NCBI GenBank assembly: GCA_010093815.1
Contig: ML996575.1
Source of the DNA: Pseudovirgaria hyperparasitica
Taxonomy: Eukaryota
Length of the DNA stretch: 64,000 bases
Direction: 5' to 3' (one strand)
The first letter of the stretch is position 1. Every line of letters begins with the position of its first letter. The notes below the pieces were generated by a model. It was given only the letters and a program-made list of their open reading frames with translations. It made no database searches and had not been told where the DNA came from. The translations under genes were made by a program, and so were the position numbers. Below, piece by piece: positions 7,226-39,913 of the stretch.

Positions 7226-10200
7226 GATTGAGAGGCACAAAATCCACCTCTGGCATCAAACATGACCAGACAAAGATGGGTTGTTCAAGAGCTGGGGAAA
7301 GGTGGAATAGTCGTATCGATGGTGATGGCTGTCCAGTCCGAGGGCGCGTGAGAGAAGAACAACAACGGGCAAGGGTCCTTATTATGGAAGCTGGTGGTTG
7401 GAGTTGGGAGTTGCAGCAGACCCGGGCTTTTGCAGGCTGACAGTTGCAAGGTGGTGCAGGTCGCTTGTCTACCGGCCGGCAGATATCACAGTCTGATGGA
7501 ATAGCAAGTGGTAAGGAACGTGGTACAAACGAGTGTAAGTAGAGGCGTGAAAAAAGTGTGAAGAGTAGAGAGATGAGAGTGAGTGAGTGAGTGTGAGACT
7601 GTAGATGGTTTTACGAATCCTTTCAGGTTACCTACCTACTACCTAATCACCTACATACATACCTACCGACCTTCCTGGTAGGTAATACTAGCCATGCCAC
7701 GATACTAGAACTATACCAACGCCTCCGAAGCGGCTCCACCGCTCAAAAGAAGTCTAGTTCTGCATCTACCAGACCAGAATAGGCGCACCGGCTTGGCTGG
7801 CTGGCGGTTCTGGCTGTGCCGTAATACAGATAAATTAATGAAAGCCCAAGAATAAGAACGAGAATGGTATGTGATTGTAGTGTATTAGCTGGTCCTTGAT
7901 CCACCGGAGTGCATAGCAGGGATAGAGTCAATGAGTAAACGGGGGTGATAGGAGGCTGATAGGAGGCTGATTGGGGGGAGCGGCTGCTTGTTGGCTCGGG
8001 GGGGCTGCTTGGGGACTTCTGGGGGCGCTGATTCGGGCAAATCGGGGGGGAGGGAAAAAGGGACTGGACAGCGGCATTCAGCCCGTCAACCCGCCAAAAC
8101 CAGCCAAAACCAGCCAAACCAGCTAAATTCCAAGCAATACAGCAGCCAAAATGCCAAAATGCAACTTGTCCCGTTTGTCCTTTCCCCCTTCCCCCTTCGT
8201 CCCTTTCTCTGGCCCCTGCCTGACTATTTGCGCTGCGTTCTAGCCCGTTCGCCCCTTCCCAATCCGGACTCGTTGCTGCCAAATACGGCTTCGGCCTTGC
8301 ACCGCTCGCCCCTGCCGGTTTGATTTGTGGCGTCGATCAATACTTCTCTCGCTTCCCTTTTCCATTCCATTTTCCAATCCCCATCTTCCCTCACCTCCAT
8401 CTACACAACATCATGACAACAATCACTGCCAGCCTTGCCATTAGCATTGAATCCCTCAATTAACTTCTGTTTGCACGCTCAACGCCTTCAAATCTCTCAC
8501 AGCAAAAGCATTTGCCTCTTGTCATGCTGCATTCCATCGTTCCGTTCCTAGCACGCATTCATAGCCTGCCTACCCATTAGCTATACACGTTCATGGGTGG
8601 ATGTAGTAGAGTGGATACACGCTTCGAGAGGAGTGCTCCAGTGGTTCCCGCCAGCCAGCAGCACGACTGGACTGGACTGTCCTTCAACGTTTAGTTTAAT
8701 TGCGTTATGGATGCCATTGTCCTGCTGCTGGCTGACGGGTCCACTTGTTGACTGGGCCGCATGCATTCGTCTGATTGGCCGGCCGGACTGACTTTCACTT
8801 GCACGCCAATTTGCATAATTACCAGTATCATTTTCTGCTATGCTGCCTGCCTGTAAGGTTCTCCACCACTTCGTCTTGTTGTCATCCATCAACAACGCCA
8901 TCAACATACCGCGTACGCCATCTACGCCGCTCTGTTCTTTTATCGAATCTAGACTACAACCTGCCTGTCCTGACGGGTGTGAGAGCCAATGGATGTCTTG
9001 CGCTTGTTTTCCTGCCACGGAGCCTCGAGCTGTTTTGAGGCGATTTCATATCCCTTACTCCAATAAGCCCAAAAGTGTACCTCGCCTAGTAATTACTGTG
9101 CGCTCGAATAAGATGTTTGCGTGATAGCGACTAAGTATACACATGAGTCACTGTCTGTACCGAGACTTGCAAAGGCCCGACTAAGGGGCGGCCTGGGTGT
9201 AGTCTATGCATGACTCGTGGTGATATAGATACTCCTGTCTAAAAGTCATCACTGTTGCGAATGGATGCATGACAGATTCCTCCTTCCTTCTGCACGAGAC
9301 CATATCTATGTAGTGTATTGTTTAGAAGGCCATGGACATGCCCATTCCAGCATCCACAGACTCTCAGTCCACACGCACTTCCATCCCCGCTGAAGCCCAA
9401 CGACGACAATCATCATCGCACCATGATGCTGCCCATCTGCGTATGTGTACATCTCCGCATGGCATCTATTGTCGCATCCATGATACCCACCAGTGAGGAG
9501 GTCCTCAAGTGTATTCATGACAGTGTCTATTTGAGTGCCGAATATCTCTCTCGTAGGCAAGGCGGGTTGAAAGGAAAGATGGTTGTAATAAATACTATCA
9601 GAGGTCACCATGACAAAGTGTCGGGTAGCGACCTGGATATATGTGATGGCTGTGTGGCTGGGGTAGATGTTGTGAATGTTGTGGTCTGCTTCATAGTGGA
9701 GTGTATTGTTGGACTTGATGCTTGAAGAGGGCTGTTATATACGTCAAGAATATGAATGCCGGGTAATAGTCAATCCCACCTATGGCAAAAGAACATACCC
9801 GCCAATCCATCTACAACCCGCCCTCAACTAGCATCTCCTAAAGCACCTATATGATTGAGTCACTTCGGTCACTTAGGACATAGAGCAATCGTGTCTCGGG
9901 AATACCCTCAGAAAGCTTCCTGGAAAAAAAGTAATCTAGGGGAAAAATGCGGGTCAGCTCTGCCCGGCAGTGCTCTGAAACCATGGGTCGTGCTGGTCGC
10001 GCTGGTGATGATGATGGTGATGATGATGATGATTGTCATTATTCGATATATCAGATGGACGAGTGGGATTTATATCTACATTAGTTCATGTATCAGCGAG
10101 CTTGCTCTCACATCGAAGACCAACACTATCGTTGAAGCCTACAAGAAGTGCTAAATACCATACCCCCAATAACATGACCGTCCACTCCACAAACAAACGC

Positions 10201-20898: not shown

Positions 20899-23335
20899 GC
20901 TGTATAATACGGGTTCTTGATACAAACAAAAGAACCGTCGATGATAGCAAGGTTGTCAATGGAGAGTGTATGGCGACGTTGACGGGAGGCTCAAGTGTCG
21001 AGAAATGGGAGAGCGGTGTCGCAAGGGTCACAAACCCGAAGGCGCAAGGTGCAGTCGAAGGTGGATCTGACCAAGAAGCTATCGCCGATAGCTCCCCGAT
21101 GCGGGAGACGGGCGTGGGGAAATTAGACAGAGGGCCCACGGACAGGGACGAGATGATAATTGAAGCAGTGTGTAGGGACAGAGTGGAATGTGGGTGCGTG
21201 TGTGTGTTGTGAACAGACAAAGGAGAATGAATGCGACGATTGGTGAAATGAATACCCTACAGAGTAGCAAGGTTGGCAGTTCTCCGGCAAACGAATTTTT
21301 CGGGCATTTTGGTTGTCGTGTTTGTCCTACTGTGGCCAGCCAAGCACCAGCCACCTTGTTGCGATCGATGGCTTCAAATACCTCGAGTAGCCCATCACCC
21401 ATCCACGTACTCTGCGGGCACAACTCATTTCCCAATCTACTCTATTACACCTACACCTGCGCCGTATCTACACGATTACATGAATTGCACCTTTCAACGG
21501 CGGCTTGTTGGAGCTCATCGTCCTTTGCGCCCCGCGATGAGGGAGGCTGGCAGATACCTTAGATGGCATTCCGGCCTTTATTCAAACACCTACCCTTGTA
21601 TGGAGACTATTCATCAGAGATGACATCGCGCAGCAAAAACAACTCAAGACGTCGCCAGCCCATCTAGACTGGTAGCTGTTTCATTAGCCTACGTTTCATG
21701 TGCCAGCAAATAGCCAAAATAAGCCGTCGTGTGATGTGGCAGCAGTGACCTATTTCTGCGGCTCTAACATCCAAGTATTAATGTACCTAGGCAGACCTAA
21801 ACCGTTCCCTCGAACTACAAGATGCAATACTTCCTTTGCCGGCATTAGAGCTCAACATCTGGCATTTCATGCGGATAGCCCACCCTGAAAATTGCACGGG
21901 CCTCGTATATAATTAGGGACTCGATGCTCTTTTTGTCTCTCCCAGGTAAGAGATAGTACGACGCTGTTCATCAACACATTCATGTTTTCATTCCCAAGAT
22001 CATCGAGCAAGCTTGCCTACGACCTCATGGTTACTGAGTACATCGCTGCCGCTGTTTGCTGTTGCCTTCACCATAGATCGAGCGAGGAAGTCATTTCTTC
22101 AGAACAGTTGACGCATCTTGTCAAATCACTCTACCCGTTGCACAGGGCATGTTGTCCCAGATCTTGTTCTTATGATAGTCTTTACCTCATTCAGGTCTGA
22201 ATTTTCAGTATAAAGGCCTGACTTACTAGCACGATCGATCCAATAGTCACGGACTATACCACTATGCATCTCATCAACACGACCTAGGTGATGCGAACAT
22301 CCAGATTGACGCGCACTGAGAGGCTTTGCAAAATGACACCTTCCGTTCTCAAGGTTTATCATCGAGACGCAACGTCTCTCCAGTTGATTCCAAAAGCTGG
22401 GTACGTTCAATCCTTGTTGTCCAGACATGTAAACAACTTGATACCGCGCAACGAAGGATCAGACTACATAATTAGTGAGTGCTTTTTGACTTGCTTCTAC
22501 ATTCCACAAATCAGGCCTGCTTGCCCGACAAGCTGGATCGCTATTCATCACCGTCCCGCAAATTTATTTTCCAGTCATGGTACTACCATGACTTTCCTTA
22601 GCAGCGTAGGTAGAGGTAGGCAGTATCGGCTGCTTACTAATGTCGCCAGTGTTTACAGATCAATATATACTCTCCCTAGATATGCCCGCGCAGAACGGTC
22701 CTTACAGGCAGGCATCAAGCACAGTGGCGTGGTATATCGTAGTCGGTTCATTTTCTTGAGTTGTTGTTACACCAATAGAAAGGAGCGTAAGTTACACTCA
22801 TTTTTGGAAACTCTAAAGCTTTTGTACTATGACTTCTCCATTTGGCCTATGCTTTGAACTTACGCTGATTGACACCTGTCTCTAAAGTTGTGCAGGACTT
22901 TGATGCTCACATTCAAGGTGGCTCTCTTGAGTTTCTTCCAGCTAGTCGCAACCCATCTAAAATGGAGTAATATAAGTCTGGATGCCTGGGACCAGATGCA
23001 TTACTCCCAAAAAGGTAAACGTACTAAACGATCTAAGCTTATCCTATATAATTAATAGATCATAGGGCATCTAGGTACGTCAACAATAATTATAATTGGA
23101 CCAGACTTGGACTAAGAAGTAAGCTACCAGAAGAGCGAAAGCTGGTCATGAACCTTGCACCCTGCAATGGATCCGCCTCCGCTAAAGCGATCACAACGAC
23201 GTCACTTCCCGGTCAGGTTCTGAGGTTGGCCAAGCTTGACCATCGCAGCCTGTTCACTTCTTAGAACTTCTGCCACCTCTGACTTCTTCTCTACTTGGAA
23301 TCGTTACATTGCTACAGCTCTTCCATAGTCTCACA

Positions 23336-25071
23336 ATGGCTGCAGAGCAAGATCGGTATGGCGCTCACTTTGCTCCTAGCCAGGACAACATCGACAGAGC
23401 TAAGCAGACTGCTGAACAAGCAGCTCACAAAGTAGGCGACAAGATCTCTACTGGAAAGCATCACCTCGGTCACTACTTTAGACTCGAGCAGACTGCCCTT
23501 GAACAAGCTCGTTCCAAGATGTCCGGAGGTTTAAGTGGTGCGGAGCAAGACACCTGGGCTACATACTTCTCCATTGGCAACGATGGTCTTGAAAGAGCTA
23601 GAAGGTTAGCTGGCACTAAAGGAGTTGGTTCTGAGCAAGACCGCTATGGACAGTACTTTCGAGGCCCAGACGACGCAGCGCAAAGACTTAAGAGCACTTT
23701 CAAGGATGCTGCTGGAGATATTGACAATGCTGCTCATAGAGTTGCTGGTAAAGCAAAGGATGCTTTCCAAGATGCTTCTGGCTCTGAGCAAGACCGATAT
23801 GGCAACTACTTTAAAGGATCTAATCATGCAGCTGAGAGGGCCGATCATGCTGTTATCAGGACGAAAGATGCGTTCCGTGGTACGACCGGCGCAGAGCAAG
23901 ATCGCTATGGCGGTCACTTCGATGCTGCAAGCGGAAAACTGACTGATAAAGCTCGACGAGGTCTTCATTCATTTGAGGATGCCCAGTATCAAAGACGCGA
24001 GGCTTTCGATAGAACTGGCACATTCTCTCCTAGCGACAGAACAGCTAATCCTCTTCGGACAGCCACCGTTGGCATTCTTCAGTCAACCATACTCCCATCT
24101 CTATCGCTCCATGGAGGTCTAGCCGCAATCGCATATAGCGTCGCTCGTTACACAGGTCGTCTCGATGTGAAAGACTATCTTTGGCCCGCCGCCCAAGTTG
24201 CAAATGCATGGTACAGCGCTGTGGGCCGTCATCTGCTCGCTGGAGTCTCCCTCACTATGATCGTGGAGACGCTCTCGTACCCCGAACGTATCCTCCTTGG
24301 TGGTATCACTGCCTGGGGTACTCGTCTCCTCTACCGTATTGCGACCCGCAGCATCGCTCGCGGCCAAGATGATGAACGTTATATTGAAGCTAAGAAGGAG
24401 CCCGACTTCTGGAACAAGGCCGCCTTCGCCATATTCCTACCTGAAGCACTCTTCCAGACTATCATATCGCTCCCAGTCGTTCTTCCGTTCCGCGATGGTG
24501 CTGCAAGCGCCGCTCTAGCGCCTACCGCTGGCCTCGCTCATGTCGCTCATTTCGTAGCTGTTTTCATCTTCGGCACTGGGTTTGCACTCGAAACTCTTGC
24601 TGATCGCCAATTAGCCACACATAAAGAGAAGGCTACAGAAAGTCTGAACCGAGGGGGTGTATGGAGCATTGTTCGGCATCCAAAGTGCGTACCCTTTTCC
24701 CACCCCAGTCCGTATAGTACAAATTTATTGACTTGTTTAGCTATCTCGGCGAAACTCTCATTCATGCCTCCTTTCCCATTCTTCTCTATTCATGTGGTCT
24801 CCTCCATCCTATCGCCGTTCTTGGTCCACTCGCCAACTATGCTTTCTTGCGCTATATAGGCGGCGATGCGCAGACTGAGACATCACAAGAAGAGAGATAC
24901 AAGACTGAAGATCCCGCTAAACTTGCTCAATTACAGCAGTACAAGGCGAAAACCAACTCGTTCTGGCCAAAGGTTGAGGAGTTGAAGAACTCATGGGTAT
25001 GGACCGTGGTAGGTGTGGGCCTAGTAGGTGCAGTAGTCGAGAGCGGAGTGAGGGAACTCCTCTTACACTAG
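23336..25071 (+). CDS. DUF1295 (steroid 5-alpha-reductase-like membrane protein) with N-terminal EQDRYG repeats
   Basis: Membrane domain with WGTRLLYRIATRSIARGQDDERY, ETLADRQL and GVWSIVRHP|NYLGE (intron ~24685-24739). The N-terminal ~200 aa is hydrophilic and repetitive. Confidence 0.85.
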
Positions 25072-25197
25072 AAATAACACAAACGAGTCGTATCAATACC
25101 GTGACCGAGCCAGTGCAGTCACTCGAGAAGTTATGCCTTCTATAACATAGCTTCTATTGAAACGACGGATAGACTATCAGAGCATTACATCCTAGTC

Positions 25198-26925
25198 TTA
25201 TCTTACAACTGGTTTCAAATGCACCCACAGCGGGGTTTTATCCCAAACTACATATATCTTCTGCTTGGGAAGCTCCACATTATTGGGTGCGAGAGCTATG
25301 TCAAAGTGCCAAAGAATCTATAACATGTTAGCATACTGATCTTCTCCATTGAGCCCGTCCATGAATGAAGAGCGCAAACAGGAGGATGATTGTTACCTGG
25401 GCCATGATAAGGCGCATCTCCATTCTAGCTAGACTACTACACAGTTAGCATCCCGAACGTACGTAGTACCATTCTCAGAGGGGGCGGTAAGTACTTGCGA
25501 CCAATGCAATTCCGTGGCCCAACACTGAACGGCTGTAAAGCTTCCTTTCGATCACCTGACCACTTCCCGGTCTCATCAGGAAGAAACCTTTCAGGGTCAT
25601 ATACCTCTGGGTTCTGCCAATTTTCTGCGCTGTAATTCATAGCATACATTGTAATTCCAACACCAGTCCCGCCAGGAACATGCTTTCCGCAGATCATAGC
25701 GCCTTCTGGGGGAGTAACACGAGTAAAAGTACCAGCACCGGGTGGGTACATACGTAGGCTTTCTTCGAGAGCAGCTATAAAATAGGGCATCCTACCCATC
25801 ATGTTCATATCGATCTCGTCGGCGCTCGAGCAAGTCTGTCGGATCTCTGTTGTTACCCGCGACTGTATATCCGGATGAGCGCCAAGGAAATATGTGAAAC
25901 CAGTGAGTAATGTTGCTGTCGTCTCTGAACCTGCAACAATAAAGACACGCGAATTAGTTGACAGATCTCCAAGGCTTAATTTACCCAATCTATAGGCATC
26001 GATCATGTTCTGCATCAGGTCCGTATAGTCTGGATTTCTGTCAAGTCGGCGAAGCAACTTCTCATGCACAAGCTCGTGATGATCAGTACGAGATCTTCTA
26101 TCCTGGGATCGAACCAAGACTAGCCACATGAGCTTCCTAAGAATTCCAAAGCGATTGACAGCGAAGATGTAAGCCGCTGCGCGGACATATAGTCTCAGTA
26201 CTCTTATCCAAGGATGATATGTGGAATTCGATAAACAATCGAAAGATTCACTGTACGCGAGATGCCCAATGATATCGAATGTGATGAACTGGTAGGCATT
26301 ATTACGGAAGTTTTTCAAGTATTGTTTAGCGATAATGAGCAGGTTTAAGGCTTACGTTATACCAGTCCTGAACGTTGATAGCGTCTCCATGTTCTGCTTT
26401 TTCTTGTAGTCTTTGTATTAACAGGCTGACATAGCTGTTGACGGTTGGCTGTTGCTCTCTAAGCGCCTTGTCAGAAAATCCATGGGCCATTAGCCGGCGA
26501 AGGAAACTGTGATGCTCCCTGCCAGCGCTGATGATATCATCTTCTCGGCTCTCACGAATCAAGCTCTGTTCATCTTTCGCGTTCTCCGGCTGTCCTTGTC
26601 GGTGACCAAAGATGTCCTGCCACGCTAAGGGATTGATATATCCTAGTTCATTAGGAGAAACCCTAACAACTTCTCCATACTTATCGTGGGCAGCCTTAAT
26701 TTCAAAAGCAAGTGTCCCATTGAGTAAATGATATTTGTACCACAAGTCGGTCACTCTAGCCACCAATGGTCCAGGATAATTTCTTAATGGATGAAGAAAA
26801 ATATTGTATGTAACTGTGGTAGCTCCTGCTAGAAGGACCTAAAGAAGTTTTAGATCCGAGGAAAATGAAAATGGTGTAAATTGGCAACATACAATTGTGA
26901 ATATTCCGAGCAGTGTGAACGACAT
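25198..26925 (-). CDS. Cytochrome P450, CYP65/TRI11-like (5 exons)
   Basis: Spliced MSFTLLGIFTI|VLLAG..HPLRNYPGP, YGEVVRVSPNEL, AGSETTATLL, EESLR, PERF, heme motif FSVGPRNCIG and C-terminal VWDKTPLWVHLKPVVR*. Confidence 0.93.
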
Positions 26926-27637
26926 AAGTTTCGAGTATTCGAAATGAAAGAGGCTAGGAGATCGTATGTTTTCTAAGCGACGTTTGAAGGACGACCTAAG
27001 GGATCTTAGAGGCAGAACTTTACAAAAGATCAAATTCACTGTAGGATATGATTATGACCGATATAGGCTCACTTTACTATGATCCGAGATTTTATTATCT
27101 GATGGGAAATCCAAAGGAGACGATATGGCACATTTTGGAGGTTACCTGCATACGACAAAACAGTAGTGGAGTGACGGGAGAGCTATTGCAGGGGTAGTAT
27201 GCGTGACTATGCATCGGCTAAAAGAAACAGCCGAAGAGGATTTGATGCTACATTGCGTCTAGAGAATTGGATGATATGATGTGATATGTTTCCCATAGAA
27301 CAATACATTCCAAATACAATGTCAAGCCTAGAGGTGACCTATATGATATGATAGGAGGGCATATGCGACGTTATGCATCAGCTGAGGGAAACGATGAAGG
27401 AGATACCATAGACCGAGGTGTGAAAGCTCTAGCTTCAACACTGTCCAGGATAGCTGTCCATACCGCTATCAGAGCTTCATTACTCCTTTGATAGTAGTGC
27501 AGCAGTTTAAACAATGAGCTTGTTCGTGTGGCAAACTATGTCATGATGTATATACGCAAGATAACAAGAAATGCGCGGCTGCAGCTGCATGTATCATCAT
27601 CTGATGTTGTGTATCATGATGCAATGCGATGCGATGC

Positions 27638-27685
27638 AATGCAAGAACCACAAAACTGGAAAATGCAAGAACCACAAAACTGGAA
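27638..27685. repeat. Perfect 24-bp tandem duplication in the divergent P450/BVMO promoter
   Basis: aatgcaagaaccacaaaactggaa x2, preceded by gatgc/aatgc pentamers. Confidence 0.85.
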
Positions 27686-27875
27686 ACAACCGCATACATG
27701 AGTCTCGTATGATTAGCAGGCCTGACAGCGATCATACCATGCTGTGTACGATGTTATATGCTAAGTCAGTAAGATATTTTCTAGGACCACAGCGGGTAAA
27801 TGATACAATACATGACCTTTCACTTCAGTAAAGGATCCAGCAGATTCTATACTGTCACGCTCGGACAGTGAAACC

Positions 27876-29965
27876 ATGGCTGCAACTGATACACACCATG
27901 ATGCTGTCGAGATGCCATTCGATCCCAACAAAATCCAGGCCATATATGATGAGCAACGCAATTTACGCCTCAATGATGAAGATACCCAAAGGTATCGCCA
28001 TGTGACAGGGGGTGGCTTCGGTGTTGCTCAAAAGCACGGGAATACGGAGTCCAAATTCATCAGGGACGGGATTTCTGCTAAGTACGAGGTCATCATCGTA
28101 GGTGGAGGTTTTGGGGGACTTTTAAGTGCTATTCAGTTGCTTAAAAGCGGCATTCAAGACTTTGCTATTATCGAGCAAGGTCGTGATTTCGGGGGTACGT
28201 GGTAAGTCTGCATGAATTGACCTTGAAATCCTGCGATCACATCCGTAACAAAGCTCGTAGATTAACTTTCTTCAAGGTACTGGAACAAATACCCTGGAGC
28301 GCAGTGTGATGTTGAGTCATACATCTACTTGCCTCTTCTGGAAGAGGTCAATTACATGCCGAAAGAGAAATATAGCTACGCGCCGGAAATTTTCCGCCAT
28401 GCGCAGACCTTGGGTCGCCATTTTGGTCTGTATTCAAAAGCATTGTTCCAGACTACAGTTAAAAGTCTTCACTGGTCAGGGAGCTCCCACCTTTGGAAGG
28501 TAGAGACGGACCAGAGCGATCACCTGTCTGCGCGATGGGTGGTCCTCTGCCCAGGAAATCAAAGCACTCCTAGATTCCCAAACATACCAGGGGTTGAGTC
28601 TTTCCAAGGAGCAAGCTTCCACACATCTCGGTGGGATTATTCATACACGAAAGGCGAAGGTGATGGCAAGCTGCTTGGTCTGAAAGGAAAACGGGTCGGT
28701 ATCATCGGTACTGGAGCTTCGGCTGTAAGTATTTATCATGTCGAATTTCAATCGCAATGCACCGTATATCTCAGCAATCACCGATAATACCAGTAGCTGT
28801 GGATAGGATTCAAGAAGCATGATGATAGTTGACATGGTTTAAAGGAGGCACGATTGGGCGAAATTCATATCTGAGGCTGATTATGATACAGGTCCAAGTT
28901 GTGCCAAACGTAGCAGATTACGCGCAGCATCTCTTCGTGTTCCAGCGCACACCGTCCTCAATTAGTGTTCGCAACAACCATCCAACGAGCGAGCCGTGGG
29001 CGCTATCACTAGGATATGGGTGGCAGCGTAGAAGAATGGACAACTTTCATGCCATAACTACGGGCATTGCGGACCCGAACGAAGGTGATTTGGTCAACGA
29101 TGCATGGACTACAATGTTGCGCAAGGTCGCCGGGGGTCTGTCTACAAAGAACTCTGGAAGCAACGGCAATCCAGCCCAGCCTGATCTTCAACAGATGGCA
29201 CAAGCATCTCAGCTTGCAGATTTTGAGGTCATGGAGGGTATACGAGCTCGCGTCGACCGAGTAGTCACAAAGAACTCAGATACAGCTTCAGCATTGAAGC
29301 CATGGTACAATTTGTTGTGCAAGCGGCCGTGCTTCCATGATGGATACTTGCAGACGTTCAATAAAGAGAACGTCACATTGGTGGACACCTCAGGCAAAGG
29401 CGTCGAAGCGGTCACATCAGAAGGCGTGGTTGTAAGAGGCCAACACATAGAGTTGGACTGCATAATTTACGCAACAGGCTTCGCATGGCAGACCGAATGG
29501 ACAGAACGTACTGGCATACAGATTTTTGGCCGCGACGGACTCCCAATAACGAAAAAGTGGGCTGAAGGCATGTCAACATTTCATGGCTGGGGCACGCATG
29601 GCTTTCCAAACTTGATATTGATGACACATGCCCAGTCTGGCCTGTCAGTAAATTACACACACACGATAATCGAGAAGGCAGAGCATATGGCATATATCAT
29701 TGAGAGTTGCCGAGCTCGGGGTATACAGGCAGTCGAGCCGACTGGTGAGGCTGAGAACGCCTGGGTTCACGAATGTCTGCGCGTTGCTGAGCCAAGGAAT
29801 GAATTCCTTCGTCGCTGCACCCCCAGCTACTTCAACTACGAAGGGCAAATGAGTACTAAGCTGCTTCGGTCGAACTTTTACTCAGGCTCTCCTAATGAAT
29901 ATCAGCGCGAACTTACTAGATGGAGAGAGAATGGTGAATTGGAAGGGCTTATCCTCCATTATTAA
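27876..29965 (+). CDS. Type I Baeyer-Villiger monooxygenase (FAD/NADPH), 3 exons
   Basis: FAD motif GGGFGG, FGGTW|YWNKYPGAQCDVES, BVMO fingerprint FQGASFHTSRW, NADPH motif IGTGASA|VQ, FQRTP, CKRPCFHD (catalytic Arg) and IYATGF. Confidence 0.93.
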
Positions 29966-30268
29966 GACAACTACATAGACTTACTCGTATTTTGTCTAAG
30001 GACTAATGAGACTATTATCTAATTTCTCGTTTCACAACAAGGTTTCTATGTCAAAAAAGTCTCTCATCAGGCACCCAGCGTATTAAGGTGTAGCCAAAGC
30101 TCAGACGAATGTTAGTCTATTACTGGGCATGTCGAATTGGTCGAGCTGCCATGCAATACTTCAAACAGAGAGATAAGTTAGGTATATTATGAGCGGATAT
30201 ATTGTTTGACTTTTGAATATTAAATTCCTGGAGTTCATCATGTCTGTAACTAACTCGAGGTACACGAT

Positions 30269-32641
30269 CTAGACCTTCAATAACTCTAGCAAGGATTGAA
30301 TGGCTTTATTCTCAATCTCACAGTGCTTCTCGATCCCCGCAACCTCCGCCAATATCTGCATGCCTAGTTTGCTAAGCATAGTAATGGTGTACTCGACACT
30401 ACCAGACTCCTGCAGATATTGGAGGATGAGTCTCTTTTGAGCCTCGGAAAGTTTTCCTGTATTGTGCCGCTGTGAAATTATATTTTCCAGCAGATGAGAT
30501 TCCGAGTGAGTAAATGCATATATCAGAGCAATGCTGAGTTTCCCTCCATCCAAGTCTTCACAAAATCCTTTTTGCTCCATATACTTGTTCCGGTCAGTTT
30601 TGATTTCCGTCTACGAATGTATCATGAACAGACATACCTCTGGTAAGTTAAGGTTTGCATAATCGTCGCGAATTTGGAAATACCTTCCGAACAGGGTCAT
30701 AAGAGGTATAAGATTTGGCACCAAAGGCAACCGGGCTTTGGCCATCATGAGTCTTGCAAGTAATCGGAAAAGGCCACCAGTTTCTAGAGATGGCAATTAG
30801 TAGGGGTTATATTGATTGGATCAGGACTTGGAGGCATACTTCCGTCAATCATTACCAAAAATTGTTGCAAGGTCGGACGGATCCCGTTCGAACTCCAGTA
30901 CAGATCATAGCTTTGGCCAATAAAGAGATTTCTTATTTCTTCTGTAATCTAGTGTTAGCGAAATGCTGACGGGCTTGAGCATATCTTATCACTCGGAGAT
31001 AGCTTACCACTGAAGATATCGAGACCTTGTGTGTCATCGTGCTTTCTGATAATGCTCATAGCTTCGAGAATGTAATAGCTGGCCGAGTTGATCGTTTGTG
31101 GGGCACCAAAGACCATATGAGTCGATGGCTTACCACGACGGAGACTTGAGTCATCCTGAACATCATCGAGCATCAGTGAGGCATTATGTAACATACCAAC
31201 TGCCTGATTTATCCACGACATATCGTCTGGTGCAACATCTAGCCATACATTGATAGCGTTGCCGATTAATTCTCGAATGTTTTTGGATGGAAGCGATGCT
31301 ACATACTCGGCTGGCGCCGAGAGAACCTAGAAATCTGTCAGCATTCCTCTCAATCTGACATGACTATAGCACTGGGGTACATACCGTTCCTGGCAATTCA
31401 GGGAGTCTGGTTGTAGATACTATAGTGGCATCAATGGTGTCGCACATCTCTTTCTCTGGAGCTATGCTAGCATTCGAGGATGGTGGTGTCGGAACATTGT
31501 GGTCGAGGGATCCTTCAGTTAGCATAAGTTGCGAGAGCTGTAGTGTATTTAACTTCTGCTCTGGATGATACCTCGGGCATGAATTTCCCCACATAAGATT
31601 ACCGCTGATCATGTATCCCATAGCCTCGATGAAAACCCGCGAGTCGAGTGAGAGCTGTTCATTTGCCTTCACGTCTTTTATCGTGTCAACATATGTAGCC
31701 ACAAACTGCTTTACCATCTGGAGAATACGACACTGTGCATCTCCAAGACTCATAGACTCCTGTGTCATCAGGATCCAAAGGCTATTGGTCATACTTGATT
31801 TGTTAAGCATTTTTGCCAGCTTCTGCTCCTTCTCCCACGACTGGATATCGTTCGTGAGTACTGCAGCTAACCACACAGGTCGAGTCAGTTGTACACATAG
31901 ATCCATCTCCTCTGGAGGGATCGTTATAGCCATGCCAAAAGTGGCTATAGCGATCAAGAAACTATAGTATCGTCAGTTTGTATGTATGCCTCAAGAAACA
32001 TCAGAGCGAATAGACGTACTAGGACCCACTATCAACTACCCGATAGTTTAGATAATCATCCAATGACGGAAAATGCGACGGGTCACGCTTTAAGTCGAGA
32101 TCTTTCTTCCAATAGTCTATAACATTCTTCGCTCTCACGGGGTCGATAGCGGACAGCTCTTTGAAGATGTTGGCTAGGATTTTTCTTTCGCCATTCAAGT
32201 CGACGCTGACTTCGCCAATCTCCGGGCTCCAGTCCAAAGCATCCATGACCTGAGCGTTTAGCTCAATGGCCTATCACGGCAGTTAGTAGCTAGGTAGAAT
32301 TGGACAACCATTGGTCGAGTCATAGCAACCTTTGAGATCTTAGCTACGTCAATAACATCGTCGTGAAGAAAGCCAAATTCCATGATATAAGCAACAATTC
32401 CTAACCGTTCTGGTCGACATTCTGGTATGGCTGCTGAAGTGAAGTTGTACAATGGCCCCATATTCCCTCCTAGTGATGTTGCAGGTAGCGGACCGACATA
32501 CTTTCGCCAATCATTCCGCAGTCGGACAGTAGCAGCATCGTCCAGATAAGAGTAGCGGCTCACGCGCACAGGAATTCCAACGCAAAGCCCTTGATTGTCA
32601 TATGACTCTGGATCAATCATGTATGAGTAACGGTACTCCAT
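30269..32641 (-). CDS. Bifunctional (chimeric) terpene synthase: class I terpene cyclase plus trans-prenyltransferase
   Basis: Exons 32641-32330, 32270-32020, 31961-31385, 31326-31008, 30941-30840, 30783-30638 and 30583-30269 total 2022 nt (673 aa) with no stops. Cyclase motifs: PECRPERL, FLHDDVID, YRVVD, NDIQSWEKE, W..SCPRY. Prenyltransferase motifs: SKNIR, HNASLMLDDVQD..RRGKP, GQSYDL, KTGGLF, FQIRDDYAN, GFCEDLD. Confidence 0.95.
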
Positions 32642-33009
32642 CGTTAACAAGCTCGGTCTGTCTTTTAGTTTAAACTTTGTGTTTCGTGGAAAGGAAGTGT
32701 GATGCGACGGCGTTTGCAAAGCTGGATAGTACCTAGAATTATATAACCTCGTAATGTTACATTACGCTTCACAAAGGGGCCAGTCAGTGATGCCCAAGTT
32801 CCCTAGCATACCCTTCCAAATGCACTAGCGTAATCCGCGTGGGATTGACATGTTATCCTACAACTTAAGTCGTACCATCATGACCAAACTGTAGCTAAAG
32901 AGTTTGTGCATACAGACCTAGCGTCAGCACCGGAGTATGGGAACGCTATCTGGGTATAACCTTTCAGCGCAACTGCTATCAGACACCTACATATGTGCCA
33001 TCTGCATTT

Positions 33010-33333
33010 CAGATAGTAATCATGTATTATCAGTATTATTGGTCAAAGTAATACTAACATAAGATACCTTATCCTGTATATTATCTATGTTACTATTACT
33101 CTTATAGTTAAGTCTAAACTACCTAGACTATGTATGAAAACATACCTATAGTATATTATAGTAGTAGGAGAGTTTATTTTCATAGATAATTTGTAATGTC
33201 TAATTTTTTCTAAGATAATACCTTCATTTCTATAGATAACTAATAGAAGTAAGAGTAAATCGTAAGCCTCAACAAATTTAACACGATATTTAAGAATAAT
33301 ATAGTAAAGTAGAAGCTAAATGTATACACGTAC

Positions 33334-33371
<38 letters not shown>

Positions 33372-33745
33372 CTAGATAGAGTATCCTTTCTAATTAATGC
33401 TTAACACAGTAGCGATACTTATGTATATACTATGTAGTACTATATAATTAGAAGAGATGTATTAATACTTAGTGGGATACGAAATAGATCTTTATAACCG
33501 ATTCTCTTATCATAAAATTTCTTCTAATATTATCTATTTGATACTATAAGATATTCTATATTAGTACACAAGAGAATAGTAGATTAGAGTTGGAGTTAAA
33601 TCTACTATAGATAATCTTATAGGTAGTTTCTTATAAGTCTCAATATATAGAAAATTCTAGATATAGTAACGACATAAAATACTAAATATATTCATATTTG
33701 TTTTCGTATATATAGGACTACTATGCAGGATAATATCTCGTATAC
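33010..33745. mobile_element. AT-rich RIP-like degenerate repeat relic with (TA)n tract
   Basis: Abrupt drop in G+C, TpA-rich and CpA-poor by eye, no ORF of 60 aa or more, (TA)n at ~33337-33367. Confidence 0.6.
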
Positions 33746-34218
33746 CTCATTGACTATGGTGAATAGAGGTGTCGCGTCTGGGCAAACATGCTAAAAGATG
33801 CGCTGAAAAAGTTACAGACGGATAAATGTTAACGGCTTCCCTCCGAGGCTTGAGGCTGCGGGATAAATAATGTGACCGAGAGATGGGTGAAGTGAAAGTC
33901 ATCGAAGCTACAGCACTAACGCATTGACCCATGTAGCTAGAAATGATTTGACACTCCGCAAACAGTTGCTTGCAGTTGATAAAAGTAGCTTTGACATCTC
34001 AGCTGAGAACTGTGGATTATGGTGTCAGCTGAGAAATATTCGACGTTTGACGCATGCCTACCTTCATTTGTGGCGTATACCCGAAGCCGATAACTATGAA
34101 TCATATCGACAATCGACGAATAGGTGATACCAGAAGGTCCGTCTTGGTATAAAGCCTCTGGCTGGTCCTTATCAGCGAAGTAGATTGATTTCCCTCCAGA
34201 CACGAAATCTCCCATATC

Positions 34219-36212
34219 ATGGCTGGCACTCTGTATCATGATATTTCTTCTCTTGGTATTCAATTGTGCCGTTGGGCACAAAATCGACCATACGATTTTC
34301 TACTCACACTTGGTGCTTGGTTGATTGGATATGGAATCTCAGTAGTTGTATACCGCTTGGTATTGTCACCTTTAGCAGGAATACCCGGTCCGAAACTTGC
34401 CGCTGCTACAGGGTGGTACGAGACTTTTATAGACCTCTGGAGCAATGATTTTCCGGAGGTGCTCAGACGACTACACGAGAAATACGGTAAGAGTTGAACT
34501 TGCGAGTGCGTTCGTCTAGACCGCAGAACTGAGATAACCGACTATAGGTCCCATCGTACGTGTCACCCCATGGGAGGTCCACATCAATGATTCCCACTTT
34601 TACGATAAGCTCTTCGTGACAGCACATAAACGGCGAACGGATATTAGCCCTTTGTCCAATCCAACAACATTCAGCTTGGGTTGTGAAGACTCTATAATCT
34701 CCACAAGATCGCATGACCGACATCGCCAGATGCGTAAACCTTTGGAGAGTTTCTTCTCACGCCAAGGTATTTCGCGCATAGAAGATATCATCCATGGCGA
34801 AGTCCGCCTTCTCGATACAAAGTTCCAATCTCGAAAGGGCACTGGTGAGGTAATCTGGCTAAATGCAGTCTTCGCGTCCTTCGCGGGAGACGTGATTGGA
34901 TGTGTCACATGCGGCGACAATCCTGGATTTCTAGAAGGGAAAGACTTTTCTCCTGAATGGTACGGCCTCAAAGCATGGATACTAATGCCCGATAATTTAC
35001 TATATTTCAGGTACACCACAAATCGAAAGCTGTTGGAAGTTATTCCTATAATTCGTAACTTCCCATGGCTCACTAGGTATATTGCACTACTAGTCTGTTA
35101 CTTTAAGAAGTGTATCTGACTTTATGAACTTGGTAGGCTGGTAAGAGCCGTACCGCGCTGGATTGTCGACAAGGTCAATCCTAGTGTATCCAGCCTTAGT
35201 TTACTCAAATTGGTTCGTCTCATCTGTAGACTTGGAGTCGTGAGTTTGTACTAATTGAATGGATGTCAGTTTGGTGAGAATCAAATAAGCAAGATACGGA
35301 GCGAGATCGATCAGGCCGAAACAAGTGAAAAGAGTCAGAAAACCTCTGTGTTCCGCCACTTGCTCGAAAGTGACGTGGATGAGTCCGTCAAATCGATTCC
35401 ACGACTTCAAGGGGAGGCTTTCATTCTAGAAGGAGCAGGGACTGTGACAACCACTTCTACTCTAGTAATGACCACATACTATATTCTTGCTAATCCTGCA
35501 GTAGAGCAATGCTTGCGGAAGGAACTCGCAAGTACGATGGGAGACTTTCCCCATACCATCCCAAAATGGACAGAACTTGAGAAGATACCATATCTTGCCG
35601 CGTGCTTGAAGGAGGGACTCAGGTGGGTGAATGGCAATGGGTTACGCCACTCTCGCCATCGGTATCTGATCTCCCGACAGGCTCAATCGCCATTTCAGGC
35701 GACAAGTCCGCATATCTCCTGATGAGGACCTTCACTACCAACACTGGATTATACCTAAGAATGTATGTTGCTGTGGATTTTGTTGTGGAGTCATGACTAA
35801 CATCACTTTTTCCCGTAGACACCTGTGGGTATGTCTAACTACCTCTTACAAACAAACGCGGATGTATTTCCGGAGCCCATGAAGTTCAAGCCGGAACGTT
35901 GGATAGGACATTATAATCCTGAGATGGATAGGCACTGGGTGCCATTCGCACGTGGTTCTCGGAATTGTCTGGGCATGAAGTAAGTATTGTCATCCTTATT
36001 TCAGCGGCCTTTGAAGCAATACTAGGACTTATCATTTCGTTCACAGTTTGTCTATGGCCGAGATGTATATTGTTTTGGGTACCTTGTTTCGCCAAGGGGC
36101 GTACAAGATATCTCTCGTAGATTGTGATGAGCGGGATATTCTACCGGTGCAAGATAGTGATATCGGCTGTCCTAGAGCAGACAGCAGGGGACTTAGAGTC
36201 AGGTTGGACTAG
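34219..36212 (+). CDS. Cytochrome P450, TRI4/CYP58-like (8 exons)
   Basis: [39 protein letters not shown]-helix GAGTVTT, KEGLR, FKPERW, heme motif [11 protein letters not shown] and C-terminal RGLRVRLD*. Seven GT-AG introns restore the frame. Confidence 0.92.
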
Positions 36213-37430
36213 ATTTACAGTTATGGCTGCTGCTCAGAGACATCTGGACACTTATTTGGCTTTCGGCGACCTATCGATGAACAAACCATCGGCCCTTTTC
36301 TCAGTTTGGGTGTAAGCGCGTTCTCTCTACGTTATTTGAACTTTGCGCTATGATTCCAGGTCAAGTACGACGTGTTTGGATTATGTCCTACCCCGTGTAT
36401 ACCCACTATTTTCACAAGCCATGCGAGTTTCGGCATGGCTGTCTCCGGACTCAATATCTTCCATATTAGTTCTTGCTTACTTCGCGATATCTTAAGTATC
36501 AAGTGTCTACAGGAGTCGACAAGGGCCGGGCTCCGTGCATCCCGGACGGGTTGTAAATGTGCCATGTCTCGATTGCTCTGATTATTTAAACGTGCCTTCC
36601 GGCTCTGGTCATTTTCGTTCCCTTATTCTGCCTTGTCGGCTTCATCTTGCGCTGACATCCGCACGCGAAACGGATCTAAGCCTTCAAGGCCTTTATCTGT
36701 TGCAACTCTATCATCTCCCTTGAGTAGTACTAAGGCTACTTGGGAGATTATAATATAGAGAGTTTTGGTAAATTATGTCGTCCAAATAAGAATGATTCGT
36801 AATTAGCGAGCTTTAGTGCTATGGATTGAATCTCAGAAACTAAGCCATACCTTCCACCTTAGGCCTTGCGCTAAGGATACTCAAGCAGGGGTCGGAAGCT
36901 AAGGTTAATCCCCAATTTTCTCCTCGAACCTTAACGTTTTGGTGCATGACATGGATGGATAGACTGGGTTTGTCCTAGTAGTCTTTGAAGCACGTACCTA
37001 GAACGCGTTAGTACGTCTGTTGGAGACGGTGCAAAATACGCCTAGACGACAAGCAACAACAAACCATTCCGAGTACTTGCCTCGAGGTCAACTGCGGCCG
37101 AATCACATACCAGGATTTTGCGAACTCCAAATACAAAGTCATCAACTATTTGGCTTTCTTCAGACAGACAAAAAAGCTCTTGGATGGTCTCTGGGACAGA
37201 GACGGCCGATGAAAGCCCTCACTGCACACCACCCCGGTCTACGCCAGAAAGAAGTACATTGCGCAAGATCAGCTCACGTGGATCCGAGTTCGCTTTAACA
37301 TCTGCATACCCGTCGAGGTAAAGTTTAGAAACAAACCTTAAAGGTTTCTTATGAGCTATTAAATACCGCATGAACTCGCTGAAGCTAGATATCCTGCAAC
37401 TCTGGATGAAGAGCATAGTTGCAAGGTTGT

Positions 37431-37482
37431 AACGTACGTGTGGATGAGAACATACGTGTGGATGGGAACGTACGTGTGGATG
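37431..37482. repeat. 18-bp-period minisatellite x3
   Basis: aacgtacgtgtggatg-ag / aacatacgtgtggatg-gg / aacgtacgtgtggatg. Confidence 0.8.
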
Positions 37483-38908
37483 CTGGAAAATTCCGTGATG
37501 TCCCTACTCTATACTTGTTTGGCTTCTGCTTCTCAAACAGGCTCCATGTAAGACTACCTCCTGCTGACTGTTACTCCCTCAATCTAAAAGCAAGCTGACT
37601 TAATCTGTATAGTACACACATGCTACTCGCTGGCATTTCCATGTGCGTTTTGCTAGTCTAGTCCGGCGCCGTCTTCTCTACCTTCTTCCGACACGCTCTT
37701 GTGTTGTACTGGACTTGTGACCCGATTATCCATAGTCTAGGCGCAGCATACATGGCCCATGAGTTTCTCAAGCCAAAGAAAGGGCAGATGCTCTCAAAAA
37801 CATGATAAAGCAGCCAGGAACATCAGGATTGGAGTGGTAATCTCTTTCGGGTATGTCTCGTCTGGTAATCTCTCGCCCTCAGATCCACAGGCTAAGGATA
37901 GGTTCGTTCTGATACTACGATGTGAGCACTACATAATTATCAGACCGGCCACCTACCTTGCTCTACTGTCATTTTAGGGGACGAGCGGGCATTAATGGTA
38001 ATGCAAAGTAGCAATATATATACACGCACTGACGCCTGTATCGGACAGGCTCATGTTCCACTATCAAAGCTTCCTCAACGAGCCAAACGCAGCTTATCAC
38101 GTGGACGACTGCCATGGTCGGATGGCAGCACACGCCTTACGCCAGGTGCTTTCACACTATCACATAAGACGTGAGACGCGGAACTGGCCGTTCATACTGT
38201 AGCTTATGACTTTCCATGCGATTAATATTATGGTTGACCAAGACTAGTATATCATGTGCCTTATCGACCTGGAATGGGTAAGTTCTTTGTCTATAGAGCA
38301 TCTCTCAGTGCCTTACTGATATATCGGAAGAGGAGTCGAGCAGATACGCGGAGAGCATCTTGATGAGATTAATAGAGTGCGTGAGAAAGTTTATGCGTAT
38401 GTTTAAGGATGAAAGATTTAGCGAGTATTGTTGCAAAGATCCTTAGGCAGAAAGAAAGATACGACCAGAAGATTCACAGGCTGTCTGTTATATGTAAGGA
38501 AAGATTGCACTCTGAAGCTGGGTCGTGAGCCAAATTGGGAAAAAATCTATGTGGAAGAAAATATTCGTGGTACTGCAATGGTCGCTGCCTGTTACCTTGC
38601 GTGAATGGCAGTAGGTCTTGCAATATATAACCGACTGATCTCGTATGGAGCGTACGGTCATGTATGCTCTGAACGAGCATAGGCTTTCGAAACATAGAAG
38701 AGCATGTCGTGTCCAAGAGCGATGAGAAGTCAGGATATGCCCAGTAGCCTTGAGTTCAATGCTGAAGTACAAGGTATTAAGTCTTGGTCCTCGAAGTTCT
38801 AGCTCTAGCTCCAAGGTGGAGAGCCAAATGTGTCTGCAGAAGAAAAAATGTACGTATTCGAATTGCGTAGAAGCAAACATGCTCGTGACCAGACCAATCA
38901 CCTCAACT

Positions 38909-39760
38909 TCACCCCTCAGCATCAATCGCCTTTTGCAAATTCACCGTGAACGTACTATCTTTGAACGGCACCGTTGCGTCTCCAAAGTCCGTATCCGTCA
39001 GTGCCTACAAGTCAAATCATCAGCACACTTCAACCCTTATCACCCACCAGTACAGACTCACCGTCCTCGCCGCAGTTGTCAGGCTCTCCCACGCCACCAA
39101 CGGCTGCTCGCCACCCACATCGCTCGTGAACACCATCTGATGATTCACCGGAAACACACTCCGATACCCGACCAAGGGCCTGGCACCGCTATAGCTTGGG
39201 CTCGCAGACACATCGTAGTTGCCATGCGCAGAGACGGCGAATGAGAGCGTCGTAGCCGTCTCCGACGCGGCGCTCAGCCATACTACAATGTTCTCCCACT
39301 CGTGTCGGTGGCCGAGGCCCGATGACGGCGAGTCTTTGGGCATATACCACGAGTACATGATGGCGTAACGCCCAGCGAAGGATGTGGCGCGTGAGTATAC
39401 TTGGCCGGTGCTGCTGGAGCAGTCGCCGTCGGAGACACCGGTTGTGGCGAGGCCGCCGCTGTTGATAAAGTGTTAGTGCATGCTCGATGGGAGGAGGATT
39501 TGAGTCATAGGGCGGCGAGAGCAGGAAACGAACCCCGTGTCGCCGTTGGCTTGCACAGCAGGGAAGGGTACACAGCCATTGAAGATCTTCAGGAAAGGCT
39601 TATATTTGAGGTAGAGCGTGCCGGTGGTGCCTGATGGAACGGTTTGGGCGAAAGGAACCACAGCGTCGTGGGCTATTACTGCGCGGCTCTCGAGGGTGAG
39701 GGGAAAGGCAGAAGTAAGGCTCGCAAAGAGGGCAGAGATGACGAACGTCTTGACCTGCAT
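38909..39760 (-). CDS. Necrosis- and ethylene-inducing peptide 1-like protein (NLP/NPP1, type 1), 3 exons
   Basis: Signal peptide MQVKTFVISALFASLTSA, KYKPFLKIFNGCVPFPAV, second Cys in GDCSSSTGQVY, AIMYSWYMPKDSPSSGLGHRHEWE and last exon ALTDTDFGDATVPFKD. Confidence 0.95.
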
Positions 39761-39913
39761 CGTCAGTAAGATGTATTCAATTGATAGAACACTTGCGCGG
39801 GTGAGTCGGAGCTGAGAATGATCCTCGCGAGGTTGACTGTCCTAGTAGAGTCGACTCTGAGTGAATTTGTTTCTTGCATAAACGTTTGAACCAGGAAATG
39901 TTACACTCTATAA

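Follow-up and report, generated by a model that had tools for sequence, protein, structure and literature searches.

A candidate diterpenoid cluster with a chimeric terpene synthase, two cytochromes P450 and a type I Baeyer-Villiger monooxygenase in Pseudovirgaria hyperparasitica

A stretch of 64,000 nucleotides (here the window) from contig ML996575.1 of the mycoparasitic Dothideomycete Pseudovirgaria hyperparasitica (assembly GCA_010093815.1) contains, at positions 25198–36212, four complete intron-bearing genes in ~11 kb. In order, these encode a cytochrome P450 (P450-1, minus strand), a Baeyer-Villiger monooxygenase (BVMO, plus strand), a chimeric terpene synthase (TS, minus strand), and a second P450 (P450-2, plus strand). 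We read the interval as a compact and intact diterpenoid biosynthetic cluster, a reading to which we give a probability of about 0.5. In the proposed pathway geranylgeranyl diphosphate (GGPP) would be cyclized to a polycyclic C20 skeleton, which would be oxidized by P450 to a ketone and converted by the BVMO to a lactone; for this chain as a whole, in which we infer both the substrates and the order of the steps, the odds are about even. The cluster is uncharacterized but conventionally built, lies in an annotated public genome, and follows a pathway logic that is already known; as a target for genome mining it is sound but of a familiar type.

The four enzymes and their genes

TS has an N-terminal class I cyclase and a C-terminal trans-prenyltransferase on one polypeptide, the architecture that defines the prenyltransferase-terpene cyclase (PT-TC) chimeras. 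Terpene_syn_C_2 (80.5 bits) covers residues 86–274 of the cyclase half, which carries DDVID (94–98) and NDIQSWEKE (225–233), and polyprenyl_synt (182 bits) covers residues 381–616 of the prenyltransferase half, which carries DDVQD (434–438) and DDYAN (560–564). With both Pfam domains and all four aspartate-rich or NSE-type motifs on a single coding sequence (CDS) of 673 codons, the chimeric identity proposed in the initial annotation stands. When one exon open reading frame (ORF) of TS was used as query, the sole match among 752 candidates was the ‘terpenoid synthase’ P0001, of the same length, and P0001 itself retrieved 275 proteins with E ≤ 0.001 among 7999 candidates. The best non-self matches are from Hypoxylon sp. 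FL1857 (50% identity), Phomopsis amygdali (phomopsene synthase, 722 bits), and Pseudocercospora fuligena (49%). Against the Swiss-Prot entry for the phomopsene synthase PaPS (P0245, P9WEV6), identity is 55% over the cyclase domain (184/334) and 50% over the prenyltransferase domain (156/315).

A quick IQ-TREE analysis of 50 rows (the first 45 listed matches, PaPS, AbFS, TvTS, AbVS, and two more, with a minimum row length of 600 aa and P0003, a near-duplicate of PaPS, left out) groups TS with PaPS in a clade of eight rows to which AbFS, TvTS, and AbVS do not belong. The Shimodaira-Hasegawa-like approximate likelihood ratio test (SH-aLRT) gives this clade 99, on long branches (0.8), and supports the P. 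fuligena enzyme as the sister of TS at 95. PaPS is the only characterized member of the clade, and no Penicillium enzyme falls within it among the 50 rows. On this phylogeny TS is assigned to the PaPS clade of PT-TC chimeras.

The alternative that TS makes C25 or another chain length, as in the ophiobolin and terpestacin pathways, is very unlikely. C20 as well as C25 products are known from chimeras, and a 2021 screen had four enzymes among its 34 active ones that made both (PMC8307374); the P. fuligena homolog, moreover, is automatically named ‘Ophiobolin F synthase’. Automatic names, however, are no evidence, and the sole characterized enzyme of the clade is a diterpene synthase. The name ‘Penichrysol’, which a database attaches to TS, would also denote a diterpene alcohol.

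As judged from its motifs and alignments, the flavoenzyme is a true type I BVMO and belongs to the subgroup with a long N terminus. One of its two BVMO motifs, GGTWYWNKYPGAQCD (residues 106–120), is invariant in all seven aligned homologs and belongs to the motif defined as [A/G]GxWxxxx[F/Y]P[G/M]xxxD. The other, FQGASFHTSRWD (218–229), is the BVMO fingerprint, FxGxxxHxxxW[P/D] (PMC4117958), and is flanked by the Rossmann motifs GGGFGG (76–81) and GTGASA (253–258). The protein aligns over its full length with six homologs, with the BVMO motifs invariant and without gaps at the exon joints. Its relatives in the PDB comprise 34 distinct sequences with E ≤ 1e-20, including phenylacetone, cyclohexanone, and steroid monooxygenases and OTEMO. 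The best of these, 5mq6 (E 7e-122, 411 bits), aligns with residues 61–610 and so includes the N-terminal extension of the window BVMO, whereas phenylacetone monooxygenase scores E 4e-65 (~224 bits) and the phenylacetone, steroid, and cyclohexanone enzymes together span ~200–224 bits. We take 5mq6 to be PockeMO, the polycyclic-ketone monooxygenase of Thermothelomyces thermophila; it is not, to our knowledge, a cluster enzyme, and the substrate range of the window BVMO is not readable from this similarity. The two BVMO motifs, the two Rossmann motifs, and the score against 5mq6 bear out the earlier assignment of the flavoprotein to the type I BVMOs. As the initial annotation remarked, the flavoproteins known from the ophiobolin and terpestacin clusters are oxidases, not type I BVMOs.

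Over a 378-aa exon, bacterial (including alphaproteobacterial) ‘cyclohexanone monooxygenases’ are 47–51% identical to the window BVMO, and most fungal homologs 48–59%. This overlap hints that genes of this BVMO subgroup passed between domains of life long ago.

Both P450s carry the FxxGxRxCxG loop, the ExxR and PERF/W motifs, and the I-helix motif (A/G)Gxx(T)T. In P450-1 (Pfam p450, 228 bits, residues 52–468) these are FSVGPRNCIG (426–435), ESLR (348–351), PERF (404–407), and AGSETT (291–296), with PGP at 33–35. In P450-2 they are the heme-thiolate loop at 462–471, EGLR (389–392), PERW (444–447), and AGTVTT (330–335), with PGP at 56–58; here Pfam p450 is found on three exon ORFs, and alignments to full-length P450s run over residues 43–505 as a single high-scoring segment pair. 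The two proteins are only 23% identical over 461 residues and therefore belong to different families.

Transcript evidence comes from the only public run that covers the stretch (X1), the kind of which is not on record and which gave 16 contigs, all at least 99% alike. Because its joints read GT..AG on the coding strand of the respective gene, we take X1 as RNA of P. hyperparasitica. The joints support the P450-1 introns 26289–26355 and 26839–26892, as well as one in its 5′ untranslated region (5′UTR), and the P450-2 introns 34960–35010, 35077–35136, 35213–35269, and 35763–35818; a loose end fits the junction of P450-2 exons 1 and 2, and the 5′UTR of this gene extends at least to 34062, where an X1 contig starts. 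Two 3′ introns of P450-1, which the public annotation also has, and the P450-2 introns 35623–35680 and 35980–36046 are predicted only. One X1 contig (25305–26331) is unspliced across three P450-1 intron positions and hence represents pre-mRNA or DNA. Both P450 genes are transcribed and spliced. X1 contigs also cover 29111–30312, and cover is absent at 27308–29110 and 30313–33918 (most of BVMO and all of TS), which says nothing about expression, just as contig depth cannot rank the genes.

It is highly improbable that the cluster is silent or decaying and gives no product in nature. Nothing positive was found for such a state, the missing X1 cover of TS counting neither way. Against it stand the spliced transcripts of both P450 genes and the four uninterrupted CDS, in which a scan of the gene models finds every catalytic motif intact.

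The layout of the interval is that of a compact gene group. P450-1 and BVMO are divergent, BVMO and TS are convergent and 303 bp apart, TS and P450-2 are again divergent, and the bounds of the interval coincide with the outer stop codons of the two P450 genes (Table 1). A Pfam scan of 38 stop-to-stop ORFs spanning 23240–37503 assigned families to 10: p450 on four (two on the minus strand at 25440–26838, two on the plus strand at 34538–35719), FMO-like or FAD-binding families on two (plus strand, 27816–28784), polyprenyl_synt on two and Terpene_syn_C_2 on one (all minus strand, 30272–31972), and DUF1295 on one ORF in the flank. TS and BVMO exons were placed by exact spliced mapping of P0001 and P0121, and the P450 models were assembled from reading frames, GT..AG sites, and transcript joints. 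The P450-1, BVMO, and TS models are letter-identical to the annotated P. hyperparasitica proteins P0274, P0121, and P0001, which have the consecutive accessions KAF2756359.1, KAF2756360.1, and KAF2756361.1. The initial annotation had described four adjacent genes in this order and orientation, all splicing into full-length frames, with no transcription factor or transporter among them. The exact spliced models and the Pfam assignments confirm the order and orientation, and the CDS of 488, 615, 673, and 527 aa, three of them equal to annotated proteins, confirm the splicing. The last point also agrees with our scan, which found no transcription-factor or exporter domain inside the interval among the 38 ORFs, although small exons could hide one.

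Table 1. Positions in the window of the four genes, their exons, and the two divergent intergenic regions
Feature	Position	Strand	Basis or remark
P450-1 gene, 488 aa (P0274, KAF2756359.1)	25198..26925	-	spliced model, annotation, X1 joints
P450-1 CDS exons	26925-26893, 26838-26356, 26288-25495, 25433-25397, 25317-25201; stop 25198-25200	-	5 exons
P450-1 5′UTR intron	26996-27072	-	X1 joint
P450-1/BVMO divergent intergenic region	26926..27875		950 bp, GC 0.42; gene models, composition
BVMO gene, type I, 615 aa (P0121, KAF2756360.1)	27876..29965	+	spliced mapping, annotation
BVMO exons	27876-28201, 28277-28724, 28892-29962, then stop	+	3 exons
TS gene, chimeric TC-PT synthase, 673 aa (P0001, KAF2756361.1 / XP_033598812.1 / QXF69100.1)	30269..32641	-	spliced mapping
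TS exons	32641-32330, 32270-32020, 31961-31385, 31326-31008, 30941-30840, 30783-30638, 30583-30272; stop 30269-30271	-	7 exons
TS/P450-2 divergent intergenic region	32642..34218		1577 bp, GC 0.35; gene models, composition
P450-2 gene, 527 aa	34219..36212	+	spliced model, X1 joints, Pfam
P450-2 exons	34219-34486, 34548-34959, 35011-35076, 35137-35212, 35270-35622, 35681-35762, 35819-35979, 36047-36209; stop 36210-36212	+	8 exons

Membership of the monooxygenase and the skeleton it would meet

Whether the BVMO belongs to the pathway was judged from the best 120 of 7679 BVMO matches and the best 120 synthase matches. The P. fuligena contig of 349,123 bp that carries the sister synthase (KAF7194703.1) also carries a BVMO (KAF7194724.1) 56% identical to that of the window, and this BVMO is the third-best non-self match of the 7679. 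On a rough estimate, which assumes a genome of tens of megabases, the chance of the two sharing a contig is about 1 in 100, and we regard the shared contig as a moderate sign of linkage. In P. hyperparasitica itself the BVMO is located between pathway genes and has its 950-bp divergent promoter region in common with P450-1.

A number of observations weigh against a pathway in which the BVMO completes a diterpenoid, and most concern the distribution of the gene. The accessions of the P. fuligena synthase and BVMO are 21 apart, and the two genes probably do not adjoin, provided that accessions there run in the order of the genes, as they do in the window. Within the best 120 BVMO matches, only one of the six other genomes of the PaPS clade has a BVMO on a contig equal in length to that of its synthase; among the remaining five, one contig is only 5,388 bp long and one row has no contig data. 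The best BVMO homologs come from Fusarium nematophilum and Pestalotiopsis/Neopestalotiopsis, genera missing from the best 120 synthase matches, and in Pestalotiopsis sp. NC0098 the homologs of BVMO and P450-1 are on contigs that differ in length. Nor is there a motif common to the two divergent promoters beyond chance in a k-mer comparison with shuffled sequence: they have in common 25 9-mers (shuffle mean 14.8, maximum 29), six 10-mers (mean 4.0, maximum 11), and one 11-mer (mean 1.1). For P450-1, no representative is more than 50% identical and the next best are at 42–50%, so that an orthologous characterized terpenoid P450 is not identifiable.

A further point on that side concerns the skeleton. 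The product of TS is not predictable at 55% identity to PaPS, because a 2021 screen of chimeric synthases found the same product from enzymes 36–94% identical and different products at high identity (PMC8307374). That screen expressed 74 chimeric synthases in yeast, of which 34 were active and deposited as MW798200–MW798233, and eight new enzymes gave four known diterpenes (Chen et al., 2021; PMC8307374). P0001 has an extra GenBank accession, QXF69100.1, beside those of the genome project, and its UniRef name is ‘Penichrysol’, which suggests a product other than phomopsene. Such a bare compound name is what the product field of a submitter would give, and we take penichrysol to be the product of PcCS, a diterpene alcohol. 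On these grounds TS is likely to be among the enzymes of that screen and to make the PcCS alcohol; its product has probably been assayed already, and its skeleton is probably not a new one. The name ‘penichrysol’ was not found in the open literature searched, and the main text of PMC8307374 contains neither ‘Pseudovirgaria’ nor ‘QXF69100’ nor ‘chrysol’. None of the 10 other synthase matches looked up has a QXF accession, which neither helps nor hurts an origin in the screen.

The distribution data would also suit a bystander BVMO that serves ketone catabolism or detoxification, next to a pathway made up of TS and one or both P450s and resembling that of conidiogenone or methyl phomopsenonate. 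Conidiogenone requires just a chimeric synthase and one P450, the BVMO is not adjacent to the synthase in any of the six other PaPS-clade genomes among the best 120 of the 7679 matches (the linkage in P. fuligena being loose), the family is broad, with many bacterial members at the identities given above, and the divergent promoters lack a common motif beyond chance. We nevertheless consider a bystander unlikely, if still deserving of serious weight, since the gene is flanked by two pathway genes and has a promoter region in common with one of them, the occurrence of the best-matching P. fuligena BVMO on the contig of the sister synthase is improbable by chance, and the nearest solved relative is 5mq6 rather than one of the small-ketone enzymes. 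The pattern may have arisen if no branch but that of Pseudovirgaria/Pseudocercospora recruited the BVMO, a picture that fits the homolog data but falls short of proof.

The P450-1/BVMO promoter has no CGG-N-CCG site, and the TS/P450-2 region has a simple (TA/TATA)n-like repeat at ~33325–33382 that was passed over in the placement of X1 reads. A metagenome scan with an alignment of the PaPS clade gave 86 pattern matches, which reduced to six loci of at most 43% identity on short contigs, useless for synteny.

Proposed route and comparison with known systems

In the pathway that we favor, in which the BVMO acts on an oxidized diterpene, the C-terminal prenyltransferase domain of TS would build GGPP and the N-terminal cyclase would fold it into a polycyclic C20 product, either an alcohol or a hydrocarbon, with a compact skeleton of the phomopsane or cyclopiane type. 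The two P450s would hydroxylate the skeleton and oxidize one carbinol further to a ketone, a task that falls to a single P450 in the conidiogenone pathway. The BVMO would insert oxygen beside this ketone to give a ring-expanded lactone, which might open to a seco-acid.

Type I BVMOs generally accept aldehydes and acyclic ketones as well, and in a variant of this route the BVMO would act on a P450-made aldehyde or side-chain methyl ketone, giving a formate or acetate ester whose hydrolysis would lead, with loss of carbon, to a nor-diterpenoid. This variant is compatible with the intact BVMO fingerprint and with the different families of the two P450s, which leave room for oxidation of a methyl group; the asperaculin and penifulvin BVMOs, moreover, pick different sites on one substrate. 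It seems quite improbable all the same, in that tetracycles of the PaPS or cyclopiane type offer ring ketones, as in conidiogenone.

Within its clade, the closest point of reference is the PaPS line, PaPS being the source of tetracyclic phomopsene and methyl phomopsenonate (PMC8951520). TS has the same TC-PT architecture, and the end product of the PaPS line also has a ketone (PMC8951520), yet a shared skeleton cannot be deduced at these identities. No methyltransferase domain was found in the Pfam scans of the window, and the accessible text of PMC8951520 does not mention a BVMO for the PaPS line. The cyclopiane pathway likewise starts from a chimeric diterpene synthase: PcCS yields a cyclopiane-type diterpene alcohol, and PchDS/PrDS with one P450 lead to conidiogenol and, via two oxidations, to conidiogenone (PMC8951520). 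The P450 there oxidizes the alcohol twice to a ring ketone, which is a substrate of the type used by BVMOs. In contrast to the two genes needed for the cyclopiane product, the window has a second, unrelated P450 and a BVMO.

The sequence of reactions has its closest counterpart in penifulvin and asperaculin biosynthesis, where a terpene synthase, a P450, and a BVMO (PeniA/PeniB/PeniC and AspeG/AspeF/AspeB) give lactones, with the two BVMOs attacking different sides of the same ketone (PMC11669671). The logic is identical, from terpene synthase through P450 to a BVMO-made lactone on a compact polyquinane skeleton, and in the window, too, genes for a synthase, P450s, and a BVMO lie side by side. 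Penifulvin and asperaculin are, however, sesquiterpenoids that depend on a stand-alone cyclase acting on farnesyl diphosphate and on added alpha-ketoglutarate dioxygenases, whereas the window has a C20-type PT-TC chimera. Among diterpenoids, the Stachybotrys core atranone cluster (ATR1–14) was predicted in 2014 to use the diterpene cyclase ATR13 and the BVMO ATR8, the latter with the motif FxGxxxHxxxWD and late in the pathway (PMC4117958). The predicted BVMO role in a diterpenoid cluster is a likeness to the window, and the P. fuligena BVMO is automatically named after ATR8; the atranone cluster differs in having 14 genes and a dolabellane skeleton, as against four genes and a chimeric synthase. 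A step resembling a Baeyer-Villiger reaction also occurs in sordarin biosynthesis and was at first attributed to SdnN, an FAD enzyme (PMC12006653).

These precedents divide the claims of the initial annotation. Its route from P450-made ketone to BVMO-made lactone or seco-terpenoid is chemically reasonable and names the right enzymes, but it is not new as pathway logic, given penifulvin/asperaculin and atranone. Its suggestion that the cluster may make an undescribed compound family and is a candidate for a novel system is not supported in that form, as the combination of terpene synthase, P450, and BVMO is experimentally established for penifulvin and asperaculin and was predicted for atranone, and as the extra accession and product-like name of TS make an unknown skeleton improbable. 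A narrower form is tentative, and we put it somewhat short of even: the cluster may make tetracyclic diterpenoids, oxa-ring-expanded (lactone) or seco, of a family so far undescribed, which would be the first case of a PT-TC product remodeled by a type I BVMO, and the BVMO would have been recruited in no branch of the PaPS clade but that of Pseudovirgaria/Pseudocercospora. Neither a cluster combining a PT-TC chimera with a type I BVMO nor a description of the present cluster was found in the literature searched, to which most subscription journals are external, and the accession numbers of the cluster proteins were not found there either. In its accessible text, PMC8403587 names Pseudovirgaria only for a swainsonine-like cluster.

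Surroundings of the cluster and implications

Outside the interval, Pfam found no fungal transcription-factor, MFS, or ABC domain in 132 ORFs of at least 95 aa, although small exons could hide one. Thirteen of the 132 have a Pfam family, all of housekeeping type apart from NPP1; the families are DUF7729, protein kinase, EF-hand mitochondrial carrier, DUF1295, NPP1, RPN7/PCI, AAA ATPase, E3-binding domain, and purple acid phosphatase. As the flanking families are of housekeeping type and regulator and exporter domains are lacking among them, we regard the cluster as a four-gene island amid ordinary genes. A foreign origin was considered and set aside, there being no compositional sign of one: the GC content at third codon positions (GC3) is 0.44–0.52 in the four genes, inside the range of 0.43–0.75 of the flanking ORFs.

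Directly left of P450-1 is a DUF1295 membrane-protein gene (22650–24900, plus strand; ORF 23240–24856, 539 aa), of which the N-terminal part of ~300 aa has no Pfam match. An X1 joint from 23015 to 23122 in this gene has non-canonical TA..TA ends and six differing letters between its sides, so that the exact intron is approximate. The gene was considered as a source of a tailoring enzyme and kept outside the cluster, having only a generic DUF1295 match and Atlas hits below 0.9.

Directly downstream of P450-2, a spliced transcript (36911–38700, plus strand) has GT..AG joints at 37548–37612 and 38278–38330 and an alternative intron of 198 bases (37851–38048), and its 3′ end is merged in the assembly with a convergent NPP1 transcript. 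The longest ORF starting with ATG has 81 aa in one isoform and 72 aa in the other, and the transcript may be non-coding or may encode a small protein. The NPP1/NLP-family (necrosis-inducing-protein) gene lies 3 kb to the right of the cluster (39023–39841, minus strand; GC3 0.75) and has two X1-supported introns at approximately 39004–39060 and 39459–39533. Farther off, a DUF7729 gene (5923–7255, minus strand) gives a strong match (210 bits) that an intron splits over two ORFs.

The understanding of terpenoid pathways would stay unchanged by the cluster, and its interest lies in the compounds and the enzyme. Should the BVMO act on the oxidized skeleton, the pathway would open a way to compact diterpenes of the polyquinane type in lactone or seco form, and the enzyme would be a BVMO for bulky polycyclic ketones; cyclopianes and phomopsene draw synthetic and pharmacological interest (PMC8951520). 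With four genes and no added regulator required, reconstitution would be easy. P. hyperparasitica lives as a hyperparasite on rust fungi, and the product could therefore matter in antagonism between fungi.

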